DNA from: an uncultured virus (IMG/VR IMGVR_UViG_3300040801_002299)
Lineage: Duplodnaviria; Heunggongvirae; Uroviricota; Caudoviricetes
Direction: 5' to 3' (one strand)
Virus record (IMG/VR): IMGVR_UViG_3300040801_002299
Length of the DNA stretch: 20,000 bases
In this document: one piece after another, positions 3,915 to 20,000 of the stretch
How positions within the stretch are numbered: the first letter of the stretch is position 1
How the letters are laid out: each line of letters starts with the position of its first letter
Translations under genes and position numbers: made by a program
Notes under the pieces: generated by a model
Told to the model about the DNA's origin: nothing
What the model saw: only the letters and a program-made list of their open reading frames with translations
Database searches by the model: none

Positions 3915-4012
3915 GTTATTCATTTCGATGAAAATATACTTGCACTAGCTGGATTTCATAGTATGGAGTTACCCACATATTCATTAGGGTGAAAGGGGCC
4001 AGATAAGGAAAT

Positions 4013-6671: not shown

Positions 6672-6747
6672 TGGTGAGTCGTGCAGGGCTCGAACCTGCG
6701 ACCCGGTGATTAAAAGTCACCTGCTCTACCAACTGAGCTAACGACCC
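6672..6747 (-). tRNA. tRNA-Lys(UUU), 76 nt, CCA encoded
   Basis: GGGTCGTTAGCTCAGTTGGTAGAGCA-GGTGA-CTTTTAA-TCACC-GGGTCGCAGGTTCGAGCCCTGCACGACTCACCA; canonical cloverleaf. Confidence 0.97.
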
Positions 6748-6762
6748 TCGTGTTGTAACTCC

Positions 6763-6789
6763 ATTATATGTGTATTATTGGAAAGTCAA
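6763..6789 (-). promoter_or_regulatory. tRNA promoter TTGACT-N15-TATAAT
   Basis: attata 6763-6768, agtcaa 6784-6789; overlaps the TGA of 6786..6980. Confidence 0.8.
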
Positions 6790-7383: not shown

Positions 7384-7410
7384 ATCATATGGACTTTCTA
7401 GGTTTGTCAA
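7384..7410 (-). promoter_or_regulatory. Repeated promoter TTGACA-N15-TATGAT
   Basis: atcata 7384-7389, tgtcaa 7405-7410. Confidence 0.85.
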
Positions 7411-7460
7411 CTATTTATAATAGGTCGATAGTCCGCAGGCTGGCCCCTTATGGTGATGGC

Positions 7461-8159
7461 TTACGCCACCACCTTCTCTCGTATCTCCGCTTCATATTCA
7501 AAAGACCACCCAATGGCCTGATCGATCCTGTAGGAGCGACTGAAAGCAGTATCATACCTTTCAGTGATGAATGCATCGTTCACCGGGGTCAGTTCTTTCC
7601 CATCTAGAACCTTCATGCAGTTGGACAGGGCAGTGAAGAACTTGGACCCATTCTTGGCTTTGAAGCCAATCCGAGACATTCCTCGAAATTTGTCTTGGCC
7701 TACCCAGAAGACGACCCCACGCTTGCCCACGGGAACTTTGCGACCGCCACAAACGACCACTTCATCGCCCTTGCGAACAGTGTGCTTGTTGACCTGAGCT
7801 TGCCGGACGCGACGTACAGCCGCGTTACGTTTCGCCATCAAAGCCTGCATGGCATTGTAGCGTTCACGGATCTCAGGGGTGGCATCCACAGTGGTCAGAC
7901 CCATGACAGGGTAGCACCATCCACGAGTCGTGCCGAACATCTCCGTCTTCCAGGACTGAGATTCTTCGTCCCAGAACGTGGCGAAGAAATCAGAGTCGTC
8001 CCGACCATTCTTCTCACTTTCTTTCACGACACAACCGACATGCCGAATTTCGACATACCAGGTGAACTCGTTGTCCCGACCCACATTCTCCTTACCCGAA
8101 CGATGGTTCGGATTCTCAGGGTCATACTGCTTTTCATCAATGAAGTAGGCGATTCCCAT
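7461..8159 (-). CDS. Hypothetical phage protein, 232 aa, possible SH3/KOW-like C-terminal barrel
   Basis: GGAGACAC RBS; VRKGDEVVVCGGRKVPVGKRGVVFWVG pattern. Confidence 0.85.
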   Translation of the reverse strand: MGIAYFIDEKQYDPENPNHRSGKENVGRDNEFTWYVEIRHVGCVVKESEKNGRDDSDFFATFWDEESQSWKTEMFGTTRGWCYPVMGLTTVDATPEIRERYNAMQALMAKRNAAVRRVRQAQVNKHTVRKGDEVVVCGGRKVPVGKRGVVFWVGQDKFRGMSRIGFKAKNGSKFFTALSNCMKVLDGKELTPVNDAFITERYDTAFSRSYRIDQAIGWSFEYEAEIREKVVA

Positions 8160-8189
8160 GATGTGTCTCCAGTGGTGGTGATGCTCTCA

Positions 8190-8216
8190 ATCATAATGCT
8201 TGGGAAGGAATGTCAA
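8190..8216 (-). promoter_or_regulatory. Repeated promoter TTGACA-N15-TATGAT
   Basis: atcata 8190-8195, tgtcaa 8211-8216. Confidence 0.85.
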
Positions 8217-8286
8217 GAGACAGTTTAAGGTCACAGGCCCGCTATTGACAGTGAGATATTCCATAGTAGTCAAATAACTATTAGGT

Positions 8287-8593
8287 AAAAAGATTCCCCA
8301 CTCAGGGAGCAGTCACAGGCCCACCACAAACCTGCTTCGCTCAACCTGAGTGGGGAATCTCACCACACAGAAGACGACCACCACAACCGTCTTCCACTGA
8401 GGCTAACCATGCGATGCCACAGGTTGTTGGGCACTCGCATGGTAGACTCAGGTCTGATGGCATTTTTGAGAACTGTCAGACGCAATCCTTGGGGCTCTGT
8501 GGGCAGGAGCAATGCCATAACTCCCAACCACTTCCCGCTCTGCTCGTTCGCGTTGCTTCCCCTACTGGGTACTTATCCTACTAGAGCAGCCCC
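8287..8593. ncRNA. Candidate ~300-nt structured non-coding RNA; includes a minus-strand terminator with a 16-bp stem
   Basis: Back-to-back hairpins 8291-8360, 8370-8394, 8397-8451, 8452-8481, 8491-8593; two loops read CCACCACAA on +. Confidence 0.55.
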
Positions 8594-8596
8594 ACT

Positions 8597-8866
8597 TCAG
8601 ATGCGATCCGAATGGATCACACCCTTGGTGACTTCACGATACTTGCGAGCGTGGTTCGCCGCCGACGCTTCGCAGATGTTGAACATGCGAGCCACGACCT
8701 TGGTCGGAAGCTGGGTCATGTTCATGAGAGTGGCGACCTGGATCTTCTCCAGTTCGGTGAGATGAGTGTGGACCTTGTGACGACGCACGTTGGTCCGACG
8801 AGCAGGCTTGGTGTAGAGAACGCCCGCAGTAGTGGTCTTGGCGATCCGACGAGTGGTGGTAGCCAT
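8597..8866 (-). CDS. Helix-turn-helix DNA-binding protein, 89 aa
   Basis: AGGAGA RBS before ATG 8866; HLTELEKIQVATLM...PTKVVARMFNICEASAANH HTH pattern; basic N-terminus. Confidence 0.75.
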   Translation of the reverse strand: MATTTRRIAKTTTAGVLYTKPARRTNVRRHKVHTHLTELEKIQVATLMNMTQLPTKVVARMFNICEASAANHARKYREVTKGVIHSDRI

Positions 8867-8926
8867 GTTTTCTCCTATGGCTCTGATAGTGAATGTCTCA
8901 AGCAACTTGCTTGGCTGACGTATTAG

Positions 8927-8953
8927 ATCATAGTGACTTTATCGGAATGTCAA
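8927..8953 (-). promoter_or_regulatory. Repeated promoter TTGACA-N15-TATGAT
   Basis: atcata 8927-8932, tgtcaa 8948-8953. Confidence 0.85.
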
Positions 8954-9003
8954 TACTGTCATTCTGAAGGCCCTAAGGATTCTGGCCCCTATTTAGGCAA
9001 ACA

Positions 9004-9090
9004 GGAACCAGACGCCCACCACAAGCGTCTGGTTCCCGGAGCATGCTGGTCACTCACCCAGCGGCTCTATTTTCACCCCACCACAGGTGA
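9004..9090 (-). other. 3'-UTR hairpin cluster with UGUGGUGG loops; the distal 12-bp stem is probably a terminator
   Basis: GGAACCAGACGC-CCACCACAA-GCGTCTGGTTCC (9004-9036) and TCACC-CCACCACA-GGTGA (9073-9090). Confidence 0.65.
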
Positions 9091-9091
9091 C

Positions 9092-9523
9092 TCAGATTTT
9101 GACGACCTCCACTTGCATGCCATCGGGCCACTCACGACGCCGATCGCCGAAAGAACGATTGCTCACATACCCATAACTCTTGACGGTGGCAATCCACTTC
9201 TCGCACTCCGACTTGGTTCCCTTGTACAGGGCGTCGTATCCCACACCATTCGTCTCCGAATACCGCTTGGCTTCTGCCAAGCCCAGGCCAGTCTGAGCAC
9301 GGATCAGATGGATGCAACTGATCTTATTCTTTCCGCAGTCTAGCAGTCGGACTTCGTGCATCGCCTCGTCATCATCGCCATTGATGAACGACTCTGCGAA
9401 CTTGCAGAACCTACCAGGGCTGGTGCGAGCGATGCTCTCAGCGAAGCCGTTGAACTCGCCAATCTCCTGCAAGCCGAGGATAGCGTCGATCATCCGACTG
9501 GCGTTGATGTTGTGATCCGACAT
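9092..9523 (-). CDS. Protein with a ribosomal L7/L12 (bL12) C-terminal-like domain, 143 aa
   Basis: EVRLLDCGKNKISCIHLIRAQTGLGLAEAK matches the bL12 CTD pattern (V.L...G..K...I...R..TGLGL.EAK); GGAGAACAC-ATG at 9523. Confidence 0.8.
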   Translation of the reverse strand: MSDHNINASRMIDAILGLQEIGEFNGFAESIARTSPGRFCKFAESFINGDDDEAMHEVRLLDCGKNKISCIHLIRAQTGLGLAEAKRYSETNGVGYDALYKGTKSECEKWIATVKSYGYVSNRSFGDRRREWPDGMQVEVVKI

Positions 9524-9556
9524 GTGTTCTCCAGAGTGGTTTGGTGTGATGCTCAA

Positions 9557-9583
9557 ATCATACAGCGTTCTGCGGTATGTCAA
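9557..9583 (-). promoter_or_regulatory. Repeated promoter TTGACA-N15-TATGAT
   Basis: atcata 9557-9562, tgtcaa 9578-9583; overlaps the TGA of 9580..9867. Confidence 0.85.
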
Positions 9584-9867
9584 GCAGTAGCTGCATATCC
9601 CCGACAGACGACAGTCGTGTTCAGTTCGACTGCCTTCTCAGCACCAGTCAAGTCCTCGACCATCCGAACCACATTCTTGATGCTGTGGAAGGTGTGAGAG
9701 ATGACGACCACGTTGCCGTCGATGAACTCGACCTTGAACTTCTCTTGGATACGATCCTTGATGAAAGGCTTGGGGTTGGTGAGAAGAATCTCCGTCTGTT
9801 GGTGATCGACCATGGCCGACTGCCCTCGTGGGACTGGAGTGCCGCAAGCGTAGACGATGGGATGCAT
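9580..9867 (-). CDS. Hypothetical protein, 95 aa
   Basis: TGATG coupling; GAAGGA RBS. Confidence 0.7.
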   Translation of the reverse strand: MHPIVYACGTPVPRGQSAMVDHQQTEILLTNPKPFIKDRIQEKFKVEFIDGNVVVISHTFHSIKNVVRMVEDLTGAEKAVELNTTVVCRGYAATA

Positions 9868-10640
9868 CAGACAGTTTCCTTCATGGGGTAGGGGATGTTG
9901 GTGTTGGTGTCAACACCGTAGTGCTGATCGTTGCTGTCCATCAGCCGACGATAGTTGGCGTTGCATTCACGCCACCCGTCGATCTGCTCTTGGACAGTGA
10001 GAGGCTTGGTCTGGAACTTGTTTTCGCCCTGGATGGTTTCCAGCAGCTTGAGAGCCTTCTGCAGGTTCGCAGCGTGGAACGCACAGTGACCAGCCTGGAG
10101 TCGGTCGTACTTGCCATCGAACTCACCAACGACCCCGTCAGTTCCACACGGGGTGGTGAGCATGTTGACCAGGGACTGGATGCCCTCATTCGCTTCCGCG
10201 ATCACACCCAGCAGATACTCCTGGACTTCGACCACCAGATTGGCGATGTACTCGGGCTCAATGTAGAACGCCAATTCCGACGACTGACCATTGAAGAAGG
10301 TGTCAATAGACCACGAATGGGTGAAGGTCTCACGCCGACCCACCATGTCATTGATGCGATCGGAGCCATACGCGACACCCGCACAACGGGACTGGTAATC
10401 GTTGTTCACGACAGTCCCAGGGATTTCAGCCACCAGACGCTCACGGGCGAGCCCACGATCATTGTACTGCTCGGAGCGAACCAGCTTCACAGGGAAGCGA
10501 CCCGCATCGCCCATGATCGTGTGACCCCAGGCAGCGTATTCGCTGGACACACGGTGCTCAATGTGCTTCCGCACGAGAACGAAACCGACGACAGTGCCGT
10601 TGGGGATGGTGGTGACCTGAGCGAGTGAGCGAACGGACAT
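9867..10640 (-). CDS. Hypothetical phage protein, 257 aa (MSVRSLAQV...)
   Basis: GGAGACAACT-ATG at 10640. Confidence 0.85.
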   Translation of the reverse strand: MSVRSLAQVTTIPNGTVVGFVLVRKHIEHRVSSEYAAWGHTIMGDAGRFPVKLVRSEQYNDRGLARERLVAEIPGTVVNNDYQSRCAGVAYGSDRINDMVGRRETFTHSWSIDTFFNGQSSELAFYIEPEYIANLVVEVQEYLLGVIAEANEGIQSLVNMLTTPCGTDGVVGEFDGKYDRLQAGHCAFHAANLQKALKLLETIQGENKFQTKPLTVQEQIDGWRECNANYRRLMDSNDQHYGVDTNTNIPYPMKETV

Positions 10641-11461: not shown

Positions 11462-11512
11462 CAGGTCCGCTATTGACATTCACAGATTTCATAGTATAAG
11501 AAACTGGCCCCT
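11462..11512 (+). repeat. 51-bp perfect direct repeat, copy 1
   Basis: CAGGTCCGCTATTGACATTCACAGATTTCATAGTATAAGAAACTGGCCCCT, identical to 12026-12076. Confidence 0.95.
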
Positions 11513-11573: not shown

Positions 11574-11933
11574 TCAACCCCAGTCGATCTCGTTGTCAGC
11601 CGCCCACGCCCCCAGCAGCGACTTCGCACCCCGAGCACCCATCGGGAGATCGTGCTGGCCCGACTGGGCGATGATCAGCCGATTGGCGAGCTTCATCTCG
11701 CCGCAGAAGGTGGCGAGTTCACCCAGCGTGACGATCTCCGACCCATCGTCCTTCACCCAGCGTCCCTTCTTGGCCTGCTTGATGCAGTGGGCGAGATTCG
11801 CCGGATGCCAAGCGTCGAATCGGGGCGTGTACTTCTTGTCGTCCGCTCGCATGCTGCCGAGATCCGCATGGATGGCCTTGACCTCGTCGGCGGTGCTGGC
11901 GTCGTTGATGATGGTAGTGGTGGCGGTGGTCAT
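11574..11933 (-). CDS. Hypothetical protein, 119 aa, paralog of 13197..13550
   Basis: GGGGAGAG RBS; shares DLGS.RADDKKY, AHCIKQA, CGEMKLANRL and EIDWG with the paralog. Confidence 0.9.
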   Translation of the reverse strand: MTTATTTIINDASTADEVKAIHADLGSMRADDKKYTPRFDAWHPANLAHCIKQAKKGRWVKDDGSEIVTLGELATFCGEMKLANRLIIAQSGQHDLPMGARGAKSLLGAWAADNEIDWG

Positions 11934-12025: not shown

Positions 12026-12076
12026 CAGGTCCGCTATTGACATTCACAGATTTCATAGTATAAGAAACTGGCCCCT
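12026..12076 (+). repeat. 51-bp perfect direct repeat, copy 2
   Basis: Identical to 11462-11512. Confidence 0.95.
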
Positions 12077-12427: not shown

Positions 12428-12589
12428 GAAGGACTTCATCTCGGCCTCGGGTTTCGGACCTCCACTTGACACAGAGCGATTTCATAGTAGTATGATTCCC
12501 ATCTTCTGGCCCCTAGGTCGATAGACGGAAACTCCCCCAATCTCTTGGGAGAGTTCCGATGCTCTGGGGGATAAACAGAGCGAAGATCC

Positions 12590-12703
12590 TCAGGGGTAAG
12601 TGGTCCAGTCCGTCATCGGGCAGTGGCCGTTGGTCTTGGCCTCTCGCAGCGAGCGTTCGATCCGACGCAGCCCGAGAGTGGCGATTCGCACGATCCGACG
12701 CAT
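12590..12703 (-). CDS. Basic peptide, 37 aa (MRRIVRIATLGLRRIERSLREAKTNGHCPMTDWTTYP), not in the ORF track
   Basis: Translated by hand; strong GGAGGTG RBS and TGATG coupling. Confidence 0.6.
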   Translation of the reverse strand: MRRIVRIATLGLRRIERSLREAKTNGHCPMTDWTTYP

Positions 12704-12939
12704 CAGTTCACCTCCCCACACACCAGCACCGCATTCTGCTTCCGGAGGGCGATCTCGTAGACGCGAGCCTCATGCTCCAGCTCCGCCATCTGCTTGCCGC
12801 CACGCAGCAGGAACGTCTTGGGAGCCTTCCCCCGCTTGCCCGAAGTCCGCTGGATGTGGTCCGTGGGGAGCAGCTTGTGGAGCCTTCCCTCCAGGTCCTT
12901 CACCGTCACGAGCCGCTTGGTGGTGATCTTGATGAGCAT
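12703..12939 (-). CDS. Basic hypothetical protein, 78 aa
   Basis: GGGAGAGAGAC-ATG. Confidence 0.8.
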   Translation of the reverse strand: MLIKITTKRLVTVKDLEGRLHKLLPTDHIQRTSGKRGKAPKTFLLRGGKQMAELEHEARVYEIALRKQNAVLVCGEVN

Positions 12940-13001: not shown

Positions 13002-13143
13002 GAGTCGGGCCTCGGGTTCGGTTCCTGTGAGGTCTATCGCTACTACTATGAAATATCGTGAGTTCAAGAGCAATCTTTGTGGATCAATCTTTCCACTTGA
13101 CTGGTGGGGATTTCATACTAGAATAGGGGCCAGAATCGCCACG

Positions 13144-13196: not shown

Positions 13197-13550
13197 TCAG
13201 TTGCCCCAGTCGATTTCGTGGTTGGCGACCCACGCAGTCACCAGACTGACGACGCCACGCTTGCTGGCTGGGGTGTCACCCACGCCACTCTGGGCGATGG
13301 CGAGACGATTGGCGAGCTTCATTTCGCCACACTGGGCAGCCAGTTCGCCAATGGTCTGGTCGATGCCACCCCAATGCCCACGACGAGCTTGCTTGATGCA
13401 GTGGGCGATGTTCGCAGCGTGGTACGCTTCGAACTTGGGGCAGTATTTCTTGTCATCAGCACGCAGCGAACCCAAGTCGCTGTGGATGGACTTCACTTCG
13501 TCCACGCTGGCGTTGGTGATGGTGGTGGTGATCTGGGCGACGTTGCTCAT
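13197..13550 (-). CDS. Hypothetical protein, 117 aa, paralog of 11574..11933
   Basis: GGAGACACCC-ATG at 13550; motifs shared with the paralog. Confidence 0.9.
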   Translation of the reverse strand: MSNVAQITTTITNASVDEVKSIHSDLGSLRADDKKYCPKFEAYHAANIAHCIKQARRGHWGGIDQTIGELAAQCGEMKLANRLAIAQSGVGDTPASKRGVVSLVTAWVANHEIDWGN

Positions 13551-13601
13551 GGGTGTCTCCATGTTTGGGTGGTGTGTGTGTGTCGTTGTTCGACGCTCTC
13601 A

Positions 13602-13659: not shown

Positions 13660-14020
13660 CCTGGCCCCTAAATCAGTGCTTGACTCTCCAGTGGTTCATA
13701 ATATGCCCAGAACCACCCAAATTAGTGCTTGACCCACCCATATTTCATAGTATGCAGTCTGGCCCCTGACATGGGGGGGTCTGGATGGGGTTGACATGGG
13801 GGTATTTCATGGTAATGTGCCAGAATGGAGGGGGGTCAAGCAGGGGGTCTGGATGGGGGTCCAGAACACTGTTCCTGGGGGAACTCAACTCAGAGGGGCC
13901 AACCTCTAGCGGGAATTCCTCTACACACATATCTTTCCTTCCTATTTGTCCAGCTATCCAAAAAATTGTAGGCCGCCCGATAAAAGAATTCCGCAGAAAA
14001 TAGGTCCGCCCGAAAAATCT
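13660..14020. repeat. Non-coding repeat-rich junction
   Basis: Three tandem TTGAC-N9-(T/G)TTCAT motifs (13680, 13729, 13791), CTGGCCCCT x2, GGGGGTCTGGATGGGG x2, CCGCCCGA x2. Confidence 0.75.
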
Positions 14021-14117
14021 GACTCCAGAGAAACGCCTACTCCTACGTATAATAAGCATTAGACAATCTGAGGATGGCTCAGTTGCCCTAGAACACTTAT
14101 TATAAAAGGAGAAAACC

Positions 14118-14912
14118 ATGTTGGATGGTACATCATTATTATTCCCATCATTCTATAGAGTTGGAGAGACTGATTTCAATGGACGTAAGAAGTCTTCGAT
14201 TCCGATCTATCAACTCGACTGGGAAGAAATAGAAATTGTCAAAGAATCGAAATATGCTCAGTGGGCACAAGGGTGGATCGAACGCGAAAAAGATCGTGAT
14301 GGAGAAGATACATACATTCCGCCCCAAGTATCAGACGGGTATAAGAAATCACTTCCAGATAAATACTTCAACATTATCAATGATGCCCAATTCGCCATTA
14401 CATCAAACTATATGGATGAGATTCGACGCAATGCTCGTCGTGCAGTAGAAGAATGGGATATTCGTAGGGGTTTCGATACTTGCGTGCGTGATCACTGTCT
14501 GAAACCATCTCAATCTCATATTGAAGTTGCATTCTATCTGACTGCTGACTGTTACTATTCCGCAGAGAAGGATTACTATTCACGCCACGATGGTTATGGC
14601 ATCATAATGAAAAATCTCATGCTGTACTCATTTTGGAAGGGTCAGACTGGTGGAGGGTTACTCTTCGGAAAGGCAGAGTTCCACCATCTCTATAATATGC
14701 TAGAAAGAAAAATGATTCAAGCAGAATGGAAGCTTGTTATTGCTCAGATGCTCAAAGACTTCCATGATGATGGAAGAATCACATATGACGCAACCGACGA
14801 AGACTTGGATGTTATCAACAGAGTCATTGAACGAGATGGGCATTATAAGATAACTCCTCCACCAGATCGGGATGTGGCAATTCCGAAGAATATTATAAAT
14901 AAAGACGAATAA
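14118..14912 (+). CDS. Hypothetical protein, 264 aa
   Basis: AAAGGAG RBS; long AT-rich ORF. Confidence 0.85.
   Translation: MLDGTSLLFPSFYRVGETDFNGRKKSSIPIYQLDWEEIEIVKESKYAQWAQGWIEREKDRDGEDTYIPPQVSDGYKKSLPDKYFNIINDAQFAITSNYMDEIRRNARRAVEEWDIRRGFDTCVRDHCLKPSQSHIEVAFYLTADCYYSAEKDYYSRHDGYGIIMKNLMLYSFWKGQTGGGLLFGKAEFHHLYNMLERKMIQAEWKLVIAQMLKDFHDDGRITYDATDEDLDVINRVIERDGHYKITPPPDRDVAIPKNIINKDE
14894..14901 (+). promoter_or_regulatory. T4-type late promoter motif TATAAATA
   Basis: Exact match 32 nt upstream of ATG 14933, with a near-copy AATAAATA at 14911. Confidence 0.5.
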
Positions 14913-14932
14913 TAAATATATGGAGAACTGTC

Positions 14933-15235
14933 ATGGATGATGTCTTAAATGAGAATGCCAAAGCCCAGATCAAAGCCATAGGAAAGCAATTGGAGATACT
15001 CAACGATGCATTTGAGAGTGGGAATCTTCCAGAAGAAGATTTTGCAGAGCATATCGAAGCACTACGAGATCAACTAGAAGAAGTTACCCAGCATGAATCA
15101 GGGGCAGAAGAAGAGAAGTATGAATTACTTCGTACAATGGATAACATTATCAAACTACATAGACTTCCACTTTTCCAATTGCGAGAGAGTGAAGGGTTTG
15201 AAGCCAAGATCAAAAACTTATTCAATGAGGAATAA
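14933..15235 (+). CDS. Acidic helical hypothetical protein, 100 aa
   Basis: GGAG RBS. Confidence 0.85.
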   Translation: MDDVLNENAKAQIKAIGKQLEILNDAFESGNLPEEDFAEHIEALRDQLEEVTQHESGAEEEKYELLRTMDNIIKLHRLPLFQLRESEGFEAKIKNLFNEE

Positions 15236-15238
15236 TAT

Positions 15239-15436
15239 ATGTCATCAATAGATAAAGACCACAGACTACTCAAGAATCTTTGGAAAGAAAAGTTTCTCAA
15301 ACCATCCGAAGAGAAGGGTGAGTCTGAAGACGAAGACGTTTCGGAACTAACAAAAGAACAAATTGCTGCGATGGGTAAAGGGGTTCTCAAGCGTAAAGAC
15401 TATGAATTGGATAACGAGACACCTGAGGCATTCTAA
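15239..15436 (+). CDS. Hypothetical protein, 65 aa
   Basis: GAGGA RBS; TAATG coupling to the next gene. Confidence 0.75.
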   Translation: MSSIDKDHRLLKNLWKEKFLKPSEEKGESEDEDVSELTKEQIAAMGKGVLKRKDYELDNETPEAF

Positions 15437-16092
15437 TGAACTTTAAGAAGTATTTTGAATCATATGAGAGAAAGATCCATTGGCATGGCCCTATGCGTCT
15501 CGCTCAATTTGGTGGAAACTTCAAAGACAGTTCATTTCGTCAGATGGCAGAAGCATTAGAGAAGATGGATGAAAGCGTAGCAGACTCTTTCAAAGAATTG
15601 GGAGGAAGCACTCCTACAAAGTCATTAGAATATCTTTTTGAGCTTGATGGTCATAAGTATGTCATTTATATTGATCATGAGCGATACAAGGCAGATGGTG
15701 GGCATCATCTTTATGATATTACATTTGGGGATGTTCGCAAAGAAACGTCAGATGGCGTGCATATGAATGACATTGAACAAATGACAGGTCGTTTCCATGC
15801 ATATAGTGTTGTTGCAAGCGTGTTGAAATGTTTGAATGATGAAGCACTTCCAAAGCTATTCGACTTTTGGAAGGAAGATACAATAGTTATCAAGTTCTCA
15901 GGTTCAGAAGATCATACGAAAAAAGATAAAGAGGATAAAAGTCCAAACAAGAGAATGAGATTCTATAATAACCTTATGCCACGTTTAATTGATAGGGGAA
16001 TATTTAGGGATTTTGACGTAGAATATAGATCTGGTGAGAGGGGTGGAGAGCATTATGGTATGTTTATTGTTCACCCCAAAAAAGGTGCATGA
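15436..16092 (+). CDS. Hypothetical protein, 218 aa, possible virion internal protein
   Basis: TAATG coupling; N-terminus MNFKKYFESYE. Confidence 0.85.
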   Translation: MNFKKYFESYERKIHWHGPMRLAQFGGNFKDSSFRQMAEALEKMDESVADSFKELGGSTPTKSLEYLFELDGHKYVIYIDHERYKADGGHHLYDITFGDVRKETSDGVHMNDIEQMTGRFHAYSVVASVLKCLNDEALPKLFDFWKEDTIVIKFSGSEDHTKKDKEDKSPNKRMRFYNNLMPRLIDRGIFRDFDVEYRSGERGGEHYGMFIVHPKKGA

Positions 16093-16178
16093 GACACACA
16101 TGTACGATGTTTATATATAGGATGATTAACACAGTAGCGTACTGAGCTATAACAGTAGAAGGGAAACCCCAATAATAG

Positions 16179-16216
16179 AATCCCACTTTCTGATCATAAA
16201 GAGAGTGGGATTTTTT
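16179..16216. terminator. Terminator between convergent genes
   Basis: AATCCCACTTTCT/AGAGAGTGGGATT stem with a T-run on +. Confidence 0.8.
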
Positions 16217-16224
16217 ACGGGCTT

Positions 16225-16524
16225 TTATATTGAATCAATGGCAGCTTCAAAGCGAGGAACGAAATCTGCTTTCCATACCTTAAGAGCTTTATTAAATCGG
16301 TTGTTAAGGATGAGTTGTATAACAGGGACTGAAATTGCTCCAACACCCATGACAACATGAATGATCCATCCATTTGGAACTAGGGTGTACCATGGGATAC
16401 CACCAATGAAGCTGAAGATAATCACTATAATAATACATGCAAAATTCATAGATTTATTCTTATTGAGTTTCTTTTCCCAGACAGCGATTTCTTCTTTGAA
16501 TGTCATGTTTGTTTCATCATTCAT
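16225..16524 (-). CDS. Two-TM membrane protein, 99 aa
   Basis: Two hydrophobic segments; ATGA coupling. Confidence 0.75.
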   Translation of the reverse strand: MNDETNMTFKEEIAVWEKKLNKNKSMNFACIIIVIIFSFIGGIPWYTLVPNGWIIHVVMGVGAISVPVIQLILNNRFNKALKVWKADFVPRFEAAIDSI

Positions 16525-16937
16525 GAGGGACTCACTGGTAATAAGCGTTCGCGTAGTCGATCAGAGCGAAGAACTGGAAGTTTGAGCCAAGCTCTTTTCC
16601 ACGTATACGTATCAACTGCATTTTGGCAATCTTCGAGGGTCTTATAGACGATACTAAAATTAACATCATCATCATCAGGAGTCATAGTAAGTGGCTTACG
16701 ATTATAGATATGTGATTTTTCCCAATCATTGTAGCTATTGACACCGATCTCAGTTGCACATTCAAACATCTCCGTCCCATTTGGACAACCAATAAATCGA
16801 CCAAGATACTGTTCTGGTGCTCCTTTTCGGGTAACTTTAACGAAGTAATAGTCTTTAGTGGGATGCTTGAGGATAGAGTAGCGAGGGCGGTTGCGTTCGT
16901 AGCAGTAGCGTTTGATTTTTTTAATGATTTTTAGCAT
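16521..16937 (-). CDS. Hypothetical protein, 138 aa (MLKIIKKIK...)
   Basis: GAGGAG RBS before ATG 16937. Confidence 0.75.
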   Translation of the reverse strand: MLKIIKKIKRYCYERNRPRYSILKHPTKDYYFVKVTRKGAPEQYLGRFIGCPNGTEMFECATEIGVNSYNDWEKSHIYNRKPLTMTPDDDDVNFSIVYKTLEDCQNAVDTYTWKRAWLKLPVLRSDRLRERLLPVSPS

Positions 16938-18097
16938 TGTGTCTCCTCTAGATAGTCGAGTCCAAAAAGTTTGACCCAACCTTCGATATTTTCATGTTCC
17001 CATACTGGTAGATGAGATTCTTGCCAAGAGCGTCGTTGCTCTTGGACAGCAGAAACATTATCATTATTTTCGATTGCTTCAAGGATTTTTTCAACGATAT
17101 CGTCAGGGGACAACTCGACAATTTTTGCTACTTTTGGTGATGGGAGATCATCGATCTCTTCATATTCAACCCTATTAGCAACCACATGGCAGCCACCAGA
17201 GAAATTCGCTTCGCGGGATTTCGTTGATGTTCGTGAGCGATTGAACTCATTATCCATTTTGATGTCCAGTGCAAAGTCCCAGTCTGATTCATATAAGAAT
17301 CTCCCCAGATCTTGTGGGGACGGCCACTCAAATGTTTCCAGTCCACTGATCTCTTTTGCAAGTTCACTGATCGTTGGATGCCCAAATATGGTCTGTGGGA
17401 GATGGATCTTGATTTTTGGATGGGATTCGGCGAGCTTGATCATTGTGGGGACAATGATTTCTTGTAATTCTGGGACGTATGATCCACTTCCATACCACCC
17501 AACATTGATAGAGCCTTTTGTTGAGAAGTCTTTTTTGACGAGTTCTTTTACTGGATAGTAGAGACTGTGAAGCGTGTTTGGAACAATCTCTATCTTGTGA
17601 GGGTCGATGCCATACTTTTTGTATGTGTCGAATTGGTTTGACGTTGAACAGACAATTCTATCGATATAATCTGATTTGAGGAAAGCGAGAATACCTGAGA
17701 GAACTTTATCAGTGTAGAATGAACGTGCAGGATTACAGTCTTCGATACAGAGAACGTTGTCGCAGCAGTCCCAAATTATTTTTGAATCGGGTTTGTTTTC
17801 TTTGATGTGCTTCAGCATGGAAAGCTGCTGATGGGTACTGAAACGTGATAGACGATAGACAGCATAATCCGTTTCTGGGTCCATGAACTTTGGATGAGGG
17901 TCGATGCAGTATGAAGCCATTGCTTGTGCAATCGCACTGTCTTTTGCTGACTTTTCGGTAACGATTTCGATGTTCGGGTCGTTTGGATCGACTAACGAAG
18001 CACCTTCCAGTGCTTTGAGAGGAAAGAGGACTCTGTGATGACCAGACCCAAATACGTCTGAAAGTGTACAGAAGGTCTTTTGTGTGAATGTTCCCAT
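16931..18097 (-). CDS. Glycosyltransferase, GT-B/GT4-like, 388 aa
   Basis: GSGHHRVLFP, IIWDCCDN, IVCST, IVPN, VGWYGS and D.ALD..DNEFNRSR...K..E patterns typical of phage GT4-like enzymes. Confidence 0.75.
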   Translation of the reverse strand: MGTFTQKTFCTLSDVFGSGHHRVLFPLKALEGASLVDPNDPNIEIVTEKSAKDSAIAQAMASYCIDPHPKFMDPETDYAVYRLSRFSTHQQLSMLKHIKENKPDSKIIWDCCDNVLCIEDCNPARSFYTDKVLSGILAFLKSDYIDRIVCSTSNQFDTYKKYGIDPHKIEIVPNTLHSLYYPVKELVKKDFSTKGSINVGWYGSGSYVPELQEIIVPTMIKLAESHPKIKIHLPQTIFGHPTISELAKEISGLETFEWPSPQDLGRFLYESDWDFALDIKMDNEFNRSRTSTKSREANFSGGCHVVANRVEYEEIDDLPSPKVAKIVELSPDDIVEKILEAIENNDNVSAVQEQRRSWQESHLPVWEHENIEGWVKLFGLDYLEETQC

Positions 18098-18260
18098 GTT
18101 TCCCTTTCCCTACCGCGTAAACCTTTTAACCTTCTTAAGAGATTACCTTTTGTAAGATTATTTAATTGTCTTTGGTATACCTAAAAAGATGGTCTGATAA
18201 TTTGATTTTAAGAGTAGTTTTAAAGATATGATGTTATGAGACGTTTTATCCGAGAAATGC

Positions 18261-19046
18261 TCAGGAAACGCTCGGCTGGTCGACGGGGCGTACATCTAGA
18301 GACTCAATAGCTTTACATAAATCGTCTATAGCCTTATCGACTGATTCTTTCTCCACTTCATCCCTGACACTGACCACATCCTGTTTCCATTGGACGCTCC
18401 TGGCACGCTTACGCTCTTTAATCTTATACAATGCTGCTTTGTGATTAATGCAACATAAACAAGTACCACATGGCTTTGGGTCAGAGGTTAGTCCCACCCC
18501 TTCGCACCACCAAGTCTTTGAATAGAATTTGTATTCTTTGAGCTTCTCAATGACATCTTCTTTTTCATGCCATTCTAGAGGAAGAATTAACTTTCCAGTT
18601 TTACCTGAAATTGATTGAAGGGCATTAAACATATTATGGATTTTATCAATATAATGCCAAGGTGAGTCTGTTTTGATCCACCCCACATAGAGATCCTCAT
18701 CCTTTTCAAGATATTGCTGGGCTTGAGATATCCAGATTTGTGGCTGTGAGAGTCCGTCACCAATCCTTGCAGATGTATTTTCATTGTGCGAGATTGTCAC
18801 TTCCATCACATCGAAGGAAGAGTCGAATAATCCATCCCATTCTTTCTTTTTAGTGATGGCATCAATGATTTTTCTACGAGCCTCTTTTTGCTGAGATTCT
18901 GCTCCCACTTGACAATGGTTAATTGCTAGTGTTCGGATTCTCTCCCACCTTTTTGGATCACTATCATTCATCCACTTCTTCTTCCGTATGAGATCCAATA
19001 AGACAAGAGTAGAATCGCATCCACCTGAGAATAATACGAGAGCCAT
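18261..19046 (-). CDS. queC: QueC-like PP-loop ATP pyrophosphatase (7-cyano-7-deazaguanine synthase family), divergent
   Basis: N-terminal LVLFSGGCDST; C-terminal TWWC...PCGTCLCC Zn site. Confidence 0.7.
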   Translation of the reverse strand: MALVLFSGGCDSTLVLLDLIRKKKWMNDSDPKRWERIRTLAINHCQVGAESQQKEARRKIIDAITKKKEWDGLFDSSFDVMEVTISHNENTSARIGDGLSQPQIWISQAQQYLEKDEDLYVGWIKTDSPWHYIDKIHNMFNALQSISGKTGKLILPLEWHEKEDVIEKLKEYKFYSKTWWCEGVGLTSDPKPCGTCLCCINHKAALYKIKERKRARSVQWKQDVVSVRDEVEKESVDKAIDDLCKAIESLDVRPVDQPSVS

Positions 19047-19056
19047 AATCAGTCCT

Positions 19057-19653
19057 TCACCCCTTGGTCTGTTTAAATTTTAAGAAAGGAAGAACTTGAA
19101 TCCATGGATCACCTATTGATTCAATAACATCCACAACAATTTCATATGAAATGTGGGATGGCAATGTTACCTTTTCTCCAGTTTCCACGATTGATTCTGG
19201 TGTTCCCCCAAGCCACTTGATGAGCTTTCCATGGAGTTTCAAAGATCGATCAATATGCTCTTGGATGAATTGAGTGCGTGAAGTTGAGTCAGTATGAATA
19301 TCAGTCATTTTAACGAGACGTTCAGACTCATTCATAATACGTTTACGAATAAGAGGGCTATCCATGGCAGGATATTCATCATGGGGAGTTGGGATCTGAT
19401 CCGTTGGAGGGACTAACGCTCCGGTTTTTGATGGAGGGAGTGGTTGTGGAACTGTATTAGTACCTTCCCAGTTTTTGTTCCAGTCTTCTTCATCAGTCAA
19501 TTCTCCTGCATGAGTTACATCTCCAGCAACCAATTCTTCATGCACAGTTCCATCTTTATATCGGACATCTTGGACAAGAACACGCTTTCCATCTTTCATT
19601 GCCCAACGGATACCAACAATAGATTCTTTTTCATTTAGTTTCGAAGTTGTCAT
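19057..19653 (-). CDS. Hypothetical protein, 198 aa
   Basis: GGAG-A-run-ATG at 19653. Confidence 0.8.
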   Translation of the reverse strand: MTTSKLNEKESIVGIRWAMKDGKRVLVQDVRYKDGTVHEELVAGDVTHAGELTDEEDWNKNWEGTNTVPQPLPPSKTGALVPPTDQIPTPHDEYPAMDSPLIRKRIMNESERLVKMTDIHTDSTSRTQFIQEHIDRSLKLHGKLIKWLGGTPESIVETGEKVTLPSHISYEIVVDVIESIGDPWIQVLPFLKFKQTKG

Positions 19654-19665
19654 TTTTTTCTCCAA

Positions 19666-20000
19666 TTAGATACTTAAGGTACTTCTATATTCCCAAAGAC
19701 CACGCTTCACATTATATAGCTTCATGGCCTCATTATCAAGTCTTTCTTCCTCTTCATCCAAGTTTTTAAGTTCTTGATCGATAATTTCATAGATATCATA
19801 GATAAATCTCTGCTGAGCCATTTGTTTTGAAAACCCTGCCCACTGAGAAAATATTTTGACTGTCTTTCCTGAAGGGTATTTTTTCAACAAACTTTTTTGT
19901 TGTTTTTTAAGATCAGCATCAGGAATTGGAATTCGCGTTCCCCACCGGGGTATAGGGTTTGGGTTGTCCCCTCCACGCCAATATGTCAAGTTACGTTTAA
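19666..20000 (-). CDS. Hypothetical protein, partial (start lies beyond the right edge)
   Basis: Frame of ORF 19666..19989 stays open to the window end. Confidence 0.7.
   Translation of the reverse strand, partial: KRNLTYWRGGDNPNPIPRWGTRIPIPDADLKKQQKSLLKKYPSGKTVKIFSQWAGFSKQMAQQRFIYDIYEIIDQELKNLDEEEERLDNEAMKLYNVKRGLWEYRSTLSI

Follow-up and report, generated by a model that had tools for sequence, protein, structure and literature searches.

The window analysed here is a stretch of 20,000 nt from an uncultured virus of the class Caudoviricetes (IMG/VR record IMGVR_UViG_3300040801_002299), part of a source contig whose size is 77,053 bp according to the protein index. Between positions 8287 and 9090 it holds two non-coding modules, in which four hairpins with unrelated stems present a common G/U-rich loop built on GUGGUG. 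Module A stands at the 3' end behind a gene for an 89-aa protein labelled as helix-turn-helix (HTH)-like, and module B behind a gene for a protein resembling ribosomal protein bL12. The shared-loop feature is real, strand-specific and statistically supported, and the loop is complementary to the CA-rich leaders of the early genes in the window. In the direction of transcription the region is organised as follows:

9092..9523, minus strand: bL12-like gene, 143 aa, with a segment like the C-terminal domain of ribosomal bL12
9073..9090, minus strand: module B hairpin 1, UCACC(U)-GUGGUG-(G)GGUGA, loop UGUGGUGG, stem of 5-6 bp; begins 2 nt past the bL12-like stop codon (9094-9092)
9004..9036, minus strand: module B hairpin 2, 12-bp stem plus two U.G pairs, loop UUGUGGUGG (9024-9016), tail UGUUUG
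8927..8953, minus strand: promoter of the HTH-like unit, TTGACA-N15-TATGAT
8597..8866, minus strand: HTH-like gene, 89 aa, with a basic N-terminal tail and a weakly HTH-like C-terminal part
8398..8596, minus strand: strongly folded 3' untranslated region (UTR) of the HTH-like gene, free of open reading frames (ORFs); z -4.9 for 8285-8600
8370..8394, minus strand: module A hairpin 1, GAAGACG / GUUGUGGUGGU / CGUCUUC, 7-bp stem and 11-nt loop (8387-8377)
8361..8366, minus strand: module A linker GUGGUG, a single-stranded fifth copy between the two module A hairpins
8287..8360, minus strand: module A intrinsic terminator, a ~30-bp helix interrupted by internal loops; tip at 8335-8315, GCAGG / UUUGUGGUGG / GCCUGU, loop 8330-8321

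The GUGGUG hairpin modules

An earlier note, made from the sequence alone, had described four hairpins of unrelated stems with a common loop motif at + strand positions 8321, 8378, 9016 and 9078. All four were confirmed and all are apical, and their location at the 3' ends of the bL12-like and HTH-like genes is borne out on the transcribed strand. Two details had to be corrected: the 8321 loop is nested as the tip of the long terminator hairpin 8360-8291, and the 9078 hairpin has a weak stem of only 5-6 bp. One or two hairpins per module are of the terminator type. Module A forms the end of a 310-nt ORF-free 3' UTR, and five U residues (8291-8287) directly follow its terminator helix. Module B consists of the weak hairpin, an unrelated hairpin and then the 12-bp hairpin (9004-9036), which lies just ahead of the next promoter as the sole terminator-type hairpin there and has a weak U-run (4 U in 6). 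Hairpins 8394-8370 and 9090-9073 are not followed by a U-run.

The recurrence of the loop exceeds what the composition of the window would give. CCACCACA is found at 7 sites against 0.80 expected, a count reached in 0 of 200 shuffles; the remaining three copies (197, 5765 and 12375) form no comparable hairpins. TGTGGTGG is common to four hairpin loops, whereas the maximum in 100 dinucleotide shuffles was 2 (93 times) or 3 (7 times), the baseline of 2 being set by the binning used in this census of shared loop 8-mers. All four copies fall in loops and none in stems, and no shuffle out of 100 gave four loops sharing an 8-mer. On the sense strand GUGGUG has 15 sites in 20 kb, and 5 of them are within these 800 bases. 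As the stems are unrelated, simple duplication is not the origin of the shared loop.

On the transcribed strand, 8360-8291 and 9036-9004 appear as stable G+C-rich hairpins in every fold prediction, and the two modules have fold energies of -60.3 and -51.0 kcal/mol (z -6.6 and -5.1). A terminator consensus scan is limited to loops of 8 and counts at most 20 pairs, which is why none of the four hairpins appears in it as such; its only rows for the region are two short sub-hairpins in the 3' arm of 8360-8291. Both strands fold far below their shuffles. The minus strand nevertheless folds more stably than the plus strand (-136.7 vs -124.4 kcal/mol over 316 nt, and -65.3 vs -56.4 over 141 nt), and the U.G pairs extending the stems, as well as the U-run that follows, exist on the minus strand only. 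On these grounds the hairpins are assigned to the minus (gene) strand. Anatomy, strand and statistics of the modules are in silico observations. It may be added that long irregular helices of this kind would also suit RNase III.

Upstream of hairpin 1, in the same 3' UTR, a further minus-strand hairpin (8406-8443) carries a CA-rich loop, CAACAACCU (8429-8421), of which ACAACC complements GGUUGU of the loop 8387-8377. Judged from the letters, the two loops could form a kissing contact, or the CA-rich one could be a built-in mimic of a leader.

Early leaders and their complementarity to the loops

From position 1 to ~14,100 the genes lie on the minus strand nearly throughout, at a G+C content of 0.47-0.58. 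There are 22 minus-strand promoter-like sites in the window, the majority of them reading TTGACA-N15-TATGAT. A leader could be defined for 16 of the 22, and ~16-20 were counted as repeated promoter-leader cassettes, with terminators between many of the array units. The 16 leaders are near-copies of CAUCACCAC...-UGGAGA-N5-7-AUG and are poor in G (A.35, C.38, G.09, U.18). Their commonest hexamers, CACCAC (9/16), ACCACC (8/16) and CCACCA (7/16), join into CCACCAC. In the window as a whole CACCAC occurs at 41 sites (26 on the gene strand) vs 11.3 expected, and it is present in 12 of 39 ORF-based translation-start regions compared with 7% of background windows. The leader next downstream of module A may serve as an example of a target:

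8157..8216, minus strand: promoter, leader CAUCACCACCAC-UGGAGA and start codon of the next unit (7461-8159), with CACCACCAC at 8180-8172

The complementarity between loops and CACCAC leaders, claimed in the earlier note, holds: taken together, the three top leader hexamers (CCACCAC) are exactly complementary to the loop core GUGGUGG, and the 9-nt match described between loop 8377-8387 and the leaders of 11574..11933 and 12703..12939 is correct. The note had also proposed a pairing check over all leaders, and here loop 8378 reached a net energy of -10 kcal/mol or lower in 10/16 units. A perfect complement of UUGUGGUGG of at least 6 nt was found in 13/16 leader/start regions, and of at least 7 nt in 8/16; among 300 random gene-strand 44-mers, the 6-nt threshold was reached by 9%. 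The 6-mer is accessible in the loops, at an opening cost of 0.2-1.1 kcal/mol, compared with 3.4 kcal/mol for the linker 8361-8366. Relative to the AUG, the pairing positions are -18 to -31 or +4 to +21 in 15/16 units, the outlier being unit 1637 (-73, +31). An accessible seed complementary to the translation-start regions of its presumed targets, as is required of a base-pairing small RNA (sRNA), was thus found in silico, for complementarity and accessibility alike. The weakest match, -4.4 kcal/mol, belongs to the leader of the bL12-like unit itself, which is as expected if self-targeting is avoided. The leader of the HTH-like unit has no CA tract, and codons 3-5 of the gene read CCACCAC (8859-8853). 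Pairing between the 5' and 3' ends of one mRNA was set aside, as the leaders of the two parent units give the poorest match, or one confined to the coding part.

By analogy with GcvB and DapZ, we tentatively favour, at somewhat less than even likelihood, the reading that the modules are terminator-embedded antisense loops that pair with the CA-rich early leaders. The minus-strand RNA elements form two terminator-proximal 3'-UTR modules of early transcription units. They would end and stabilise their transcripts, and they expose GUGGUG(G) in four open apical loops and once in the linker. These loops would serve as antisense seeds on the (ACC)n / CACCAC tract that the phage's own early mRNAs carry just 5' of the Shine-Dalgarno (SD) sequence or within their first codons. 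Pairing would lower the translation or the stability of these mRNAs, and the loops could act either from the 3' end of the full-length mRNA or from a processed small RNA derived from the 3' UTR. That such an RNA accumulates, that the pairing actually takes place and that it has any regulatory effect is what we infer from the above.

Several further observations concern the array. The paralogous ~120-aa proteins encoded by units 13197-13562 and 11574-11933 (minus strand) are clearly related and both have Thr/ACC-rich first codons, which shows gene duplication inside the array. GGGGCCAG occurs 10 times vs 0.5 expected (2245, 3995, 7440, 8982, 11504, 12068, 12506, 13126, 13661 and 13759), almost always in intergenic cassettes, after the terminator and before the next promoter, where it could serve as an operator or as a motif at RNA 5' ends. 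A tRNA-Lys(UUU) at 6672-6789 (minus strand) has its own promoter, TTGACT-N15-TATAAT, and a strong terminator (6648-6623), and its 3' end CUCACCA is the complement of UGGUGAG in the module A linker. At ~14,000 the G+C content drops from ~0.55 to ~0.40, and genes lie on both strands in ~14000-20000. In its composition the early array seems foreign to the remainder of the window. The low-G+C part includes a QueC homologue (18261-19046), which suggests 7-deazaguanine modification of DNA. Recognisable genes of the window are few: the bL12 C-terminal-domain-like protein (E 2.4e-6), QueC, a small kinase/ATPase and tRNA-Lys.

Relatives and alternative explanations

Among 30 window proteins compared with known phages (L003, L004 and L007), one, of 272 aa, has relatives; it shares 43% identity with proteins of the Xanthomonas jumbo phages XacN1 and Xoo-sp13 and 39.5% with those of Stenotrophomonas jumbo phages. 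XacN1, Xoo-sp13 and RAS14 have the same promoter-array architecture with CA-rich, G-free leaders. In XacN1, one homologous small gene is followed by GGGUUAGGG-GUGGUG-CCCUAACCC, then by GUGGUGUG and then by a terminator. At the syntenic site of Xoo-sp13 the order is CUGGG-GUGGUG-CCCAG, UGUGGUA, UCGGGA-GUGGUG-UCCCGA and a terminator. Both modules are on the gene strand with sense terminators and carry the motif in loops and linkers on differing stems, and their upstream genes are unrelated to those of the window. They stand behind ORF052/gp46, at ~18657-18739 of the XacN1 record and ~18585-18680 of Xoo-sp13. A tandem GUGGUG pattern gave 18 matches in five phage records, and the non-coding hairpin modules among them are only those of XacN1 (two terminal-repeat copies) and Xoo-sp13, the site being unique in each of the two genomes. 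Look-alikes are seen in locus L037 (one terminator with a UUUGUGGUGAA loop) and in RAS14 (one hairpin), and both could be due to chance.

Relatives of the conserved 272-aa protein were found at 2 IMG/VR loci and 13 metagenome loci; L005, L006, L026-L036 and L038 have no module. With blastn, only terminator-like pieces of the modules were matched in the phage collection, and neither megablast of 7400-10000 nor tblastn of a 388-aa ORF gave any match there. A scan for the promoter-leader pattern returned nothing in IMG/VR or in the Joint Genome Institute (JGI) metagenomes. The sequencing runs listed as containing the window sequence are six DNA runs (small shares) and no RNA run. Four of the six DNA runs were examined, and runs X2, X3 and X6, all from one metagenome study, gave short contigs 88-95% alike, some of them covering 8172-8397 and 9056-9517; an indel pair at 8357/8359 is among the differences listed. 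The X2 and X6 relative contigs align up to 8397 and continue unlike the window, which places a mosaic joint beside hairpin 1 of module A. In one relative (runs X2, X3 and X6) the leader/promoter of the 7461-8159 unit contains, at 8159-8172, 153 letters that differ from the window, and other relatives diverge completely just past hairpin 1 (8397) and before 8450. This replacement and the divergence at 8397 indicate cassette-wise mosaicism.

Only sub-threshold Pfam matches stand behind the HTH label used in the earlier note, which is kept here as a name. The N-terminal 38 residues of the 89-aa protein are basic and disordered, its predicted fold is of low confidence (predicted local distance difference test score, pLDDT, 65.5), and a full HMMER search with it returned 4 matches, none giving a function. 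Protein look-ups of both flanking genes found nothing but the genes themselves, and scans of viral contigs with both gave only chance-like matches of 20-26 residues.

The proposed pairing with the early leaders has to be weighed against a number of observations. The leaders are paralogous copies, so the 16 matches are not independent of each other. Out of 125 loop permutations of the same composition, 9 pair as well or better; all eight of those listed share GGUGG or UGGUGG as their core. When folded to minimum energy, three of the loops shrink to the 5-nt GUGGU and the 9078 loop to the 6-nt GUGGUG, which is short for pairing. Only 2 of the ~16 units carry the loops, which would moreover be produced simultaneously with their supposed targets. 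There is no genome-wide enrichment of GUGGUG in loops of XacN1, Xoo-sp13 and RAS14: 5/305, 11/218 and 14/223 sites in these three relatives are in loops, within the range of 14 control permutations, and GUGGUG ranks 149 of 2,432 loop hexamers (2,488 hairpins). CACCAC occurs in 0/17 promoter-defined leaders and 2/57 start regions of XacN1 and in 0/9 and 2/67, respectively, of RAS14; the figures for Xoo-sp13 are 4/16 and 6/47, and only the 5-mer ACCAC is enriched, approximately threefold, in the start regions of all four phages. No module was found in loci L026, L029 and L035, for each of which 10 kb of upstream flank was included. XacN1 keeps the loops while its leaders rarely carry the complement, so that pairing with leaders, even if it occurs, does not stand out as the role for which the motif is conserved.

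We regard a different explanation as possible but somewhat unlikely: the GUGGUG loops and linkers would be sites for a protein or another host or phage factor, either as a multi-site decoy or recruitment platform with an anatomy like that of CsrB/RsmZ, or as a site for a termination, antitermination or decay factor, and the complementarity to leaders would be secondary. Such a role would suit the two or three motif copies per module, which in the window and in both XacN1 and Xoo-sp13 occupy loops and linkers immediately upstream of a terminator, with unrelated stems, and the retention of the motif in XacN1 although the leaders of this phage lack the complement. The neighbouring 89-aa protein with its basic, disordered N-terminus is also in line with it. 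However, a scan of 43 window ORFs revealed no known RNA-binding domain, and no candidate protein is common to the phages, given the single related protein among the 30 mentioned above. By reading, the loops are without GGA, without the A1 of ANTAR hexaloops and without a GNRA-like boxB pattern.

We consider it unlikely that the hairpins are ordinary terminators, RNase III sites or protectors of 3' ends, with the shared loop being a by-product of (ACC)n/(GGT)n micro-repeats and cassette turnover. The region is full of repeated cassettes and short repeats, GUGGUGG is itself a (GGU)n tract facing leaders that are (ACC)n tracts, and other terminators of the array are built from CCCACCCC/GGGGUGGG arms. 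The lack of loop enrichment in the three relatives is also what such an origin would give, and promoter-terminator cassettes of the PeSL type are known recombination points (PMC4122927). Against it stand the placement of all four copies in loops and none in stems, which 0/100 shuffles matched, and the concentration of 5 out of just 15 sense-strand sites in these 800 bases. The unrelated stems speak against simple duplication, and the motif recurs at the syntenic site in XacN1 and Xoo-sp13.

The earlier note had alternatively suggested that the + strand is transcribed and acts as a sponge. A transcript starting from the element listed below would display CCACCACAA loops that mimic the leaders and bind a leader-binding factor, and it would be antisense to the HTH-like gene.

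8245..8272, plus strand: promoter-like element facing into the terminator, TTGACA-N16-TAGTCA, with the repeated spacer ATTCCATAGTA

The element belongs to a repeated ATTTCATAGTA-type family (9 sites vs 0.4 expected, 8 of them on the + strand), the plus strand folds well too, and the hairpins have no U-run there, so that transcription would read through. On that strand, however, the U.G pairs turn into C.A mismatches and the folds are 9-12 kcal/mol weaker, the -10 at 8267-8272 (TAGTCA) is poor, module B has no nearby + promoter, and in XacN1 and Xoo-sp13 it is the gene strand that carries the modules, together with sense terminators. With the U.G pairs and the U-run confined to the minus strand, the sponge proved to be the weaker reading, and we hold it to be highly unlikely. 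The ATTTCATAGTA sites themselves (3953-3963, 8258-8268, 11486-11496, 12050-12060, 12479-12489, 13110-13120, 13742-13752 and 13804-13814 on the + strand; 13044-13054 on the - strand) form the -10 region of + strand promoter-like sites (TTGACA-N16-TAGTAT/TATAAG) facing back into sense terminators. XacN1-like phages have an analogous conserved antisense element, TTGACA..AAATTATAGTG-TAAAAT-GGATGGCAGGCCGGG. Both kinds of element may represent short antisense RNAs, or they may be promoters of a phage-specific class. A + strand ORF at 8409-8765 was read as the antisense of coding sequence with an implausible composition and was rejected.

Module A also contains a small minus-strand ORF (8440..8360) of 26 codons, 4 of them Trp, which runs through hairpin 1 (Leu-Trp-Trp) and has its UGA stop in the linker just before the terminator. 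Ribosome-mediated attenuation, with UGG-UGG as tandem Trp codons of a small ORF and the ribosome position deciding on termination, is nevertheless very improbable: the motif copies do share one reading frame in module A, in XacN1 and in Xoo-sp13, and AUG-started short ORFs exist in module A and Xoo-sp13, but the two module B copies are in different frames, the AUG-started frame of XacN1 reads GUG-GUG (Val) rather than UGG, and no convincing SD precedes the AUG at 8440. Hardly probable at all is a role at the DNA level, as single-strand hairpins or as duplex CACCAC/GTGGTG serving a DNA-binding protein, a recombination joint or a priming signal, since a duplex site needs no hairpin, and the loop display on unrelated stems, the U.G pairs and the adjoining U-runs point to RNA, even though many early promoters have this duplex hexamer at about +3 to +10 and the mosaic joint (X2/X6 relatives aligning up to 8397 only) adjoins hairpin 1. 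A Chi-like site was set aside as giving no reason for the loop display. T-box-like sensing of tRNA 3' ends was rejected as well: no Rfam T-box match was obtained even at E up to 10, and there is just a short UGGU/UGGUG complementarity to the tRNA 3' end.

Returning to the antisense loops, it is poorly understood how large lytic phages that rely on the host RNA polymerase shut off dozens of separately promoted early genes, and a terminator-embedded loop mirroring the shared leader would solve this in a very compact way. In a broader form, the proposal would be that XacN1-like large phages build a G/U-rich "anti-enhancer", GUGGUG(G), into the loops of terminators or neighbouring hairpins of selected early transcripts, so that a single 3'-end module could reach the CA-rich starts of a dozen early mRNAs or more simultaneously, or else a host factor that is conserved or the 3' end of a tRNA, and would time early shut-off. 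This generalisation is possible but doubtful. If it were true, a one-to-many riboregulator would be hidden inside terminators of phages that depend on the host polymerase; if the loops bind a factor instead, they would be a new RNA ligand motif. The module is small and defined to the base, and it is also present in two cultivable Xanthomonas phages.

Comparison with known RNA systems

At gathering score only the tRNA-Lys passes in an Rfam search of the whole window, and GcvB (RF00022) is not matched. When matches to 8150-9250 are ranked by E-value, all are far below the gathering score, and the XacN1 and Xoo-sp13 modules likewise give sub-threshold matches, the best being ErsA with 25.6 bits vs 50. 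Jumbo phage PA5oct, which depends on the host RNA polymerase, is described as having highly transcribed ORF-free stretches with abundant non-coding RNAs (ncRNAs) in its early terminal repeat (PMC7318152). The sequences of PA5oct ncRNA001 and ncRNA002 contain no GUGGUG hairpins.

ANTAR targets consist of two tandem hairpins with 6-nt loops that have A at position 1 and G at position 4. The GUGGUG loops of XacN1 and Xoo-sp13 start with G instead, and those of the window have 8-11 nt, or 5 nt after closure by U.G pairs. The CsrA motif is GGA, repeated in loops and linkers of the CsrB/RsmZ sponges. The modules described here are similar in that a short motif recurs several times in their hairpin loops and linkers, with a terminator at the end, but GGA is present in none of UUGUGGUGG, GUUGUGGUGGU, UUUGUGGUGG and UGUGGUGG, and no CsrA-like partner is indicated. 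In c4 and the "cuckoo" CcsR RNAs, short conserved hairpin loops pair with the leader or ribosome binding site, and several copies of the loop motif are carried on variable stems. Their loops are anti-SD or site-specific and C/U-rich, whereas the loop studied here is G/U-rich and aimed upstream of the SD. Base-pairing RNAs encoded by phages are known (bioRxiv 10.1101/2024.10.31.621285; review PMC12197685), and the c4 antisense RNA of phages P1/P7 is among the phage RNAs tabulated in the same review.

In T4-type phages, PeSL cassettes flank small early genes with a composite of terminator stem-loop and sigma-70-type early promoter, and act as recombination points (PMC4122927). The array of promoter-leader cassettes with terminators in between resembles them, the comparison being one of architecture only. 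PeSLs are not described with a leader-complementary loop, which the hairpins of the window do have. The window also comes from a different phage lineage (distant XacN1-like).

DapZ is an enterobacterial sRNA derived from a 3' UTR and shares its terminator with the parent mRNA. In GcvB, a G/U-rich single-stranded seed (R1) silences ACA/CA enhancers just 5' of the SD in many mRNAs (PMC3879156), and the analogy drawn in the earlier note is apt, since the loops of the window likewise oppose a G/U-rich seed to C/A-rich tracts at this position. The seed differs from those of GcvB and DapZ in being placed in apical hairpin loops, one of which is the terminator's own loop, rather than in a linear region. 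The element is also phage-encoded, with the phage's own early genes as presumed targets, and matches neither RNA in sequence or in Rfam. By mechanism, the feature, which has no Rfam family, would be a one-to-many antisense regulator or an RNA ligand site; in the former case the GcvB/DapZ principle, by which CA-rich translational enhancers are silenced, would gain an example from a phage.

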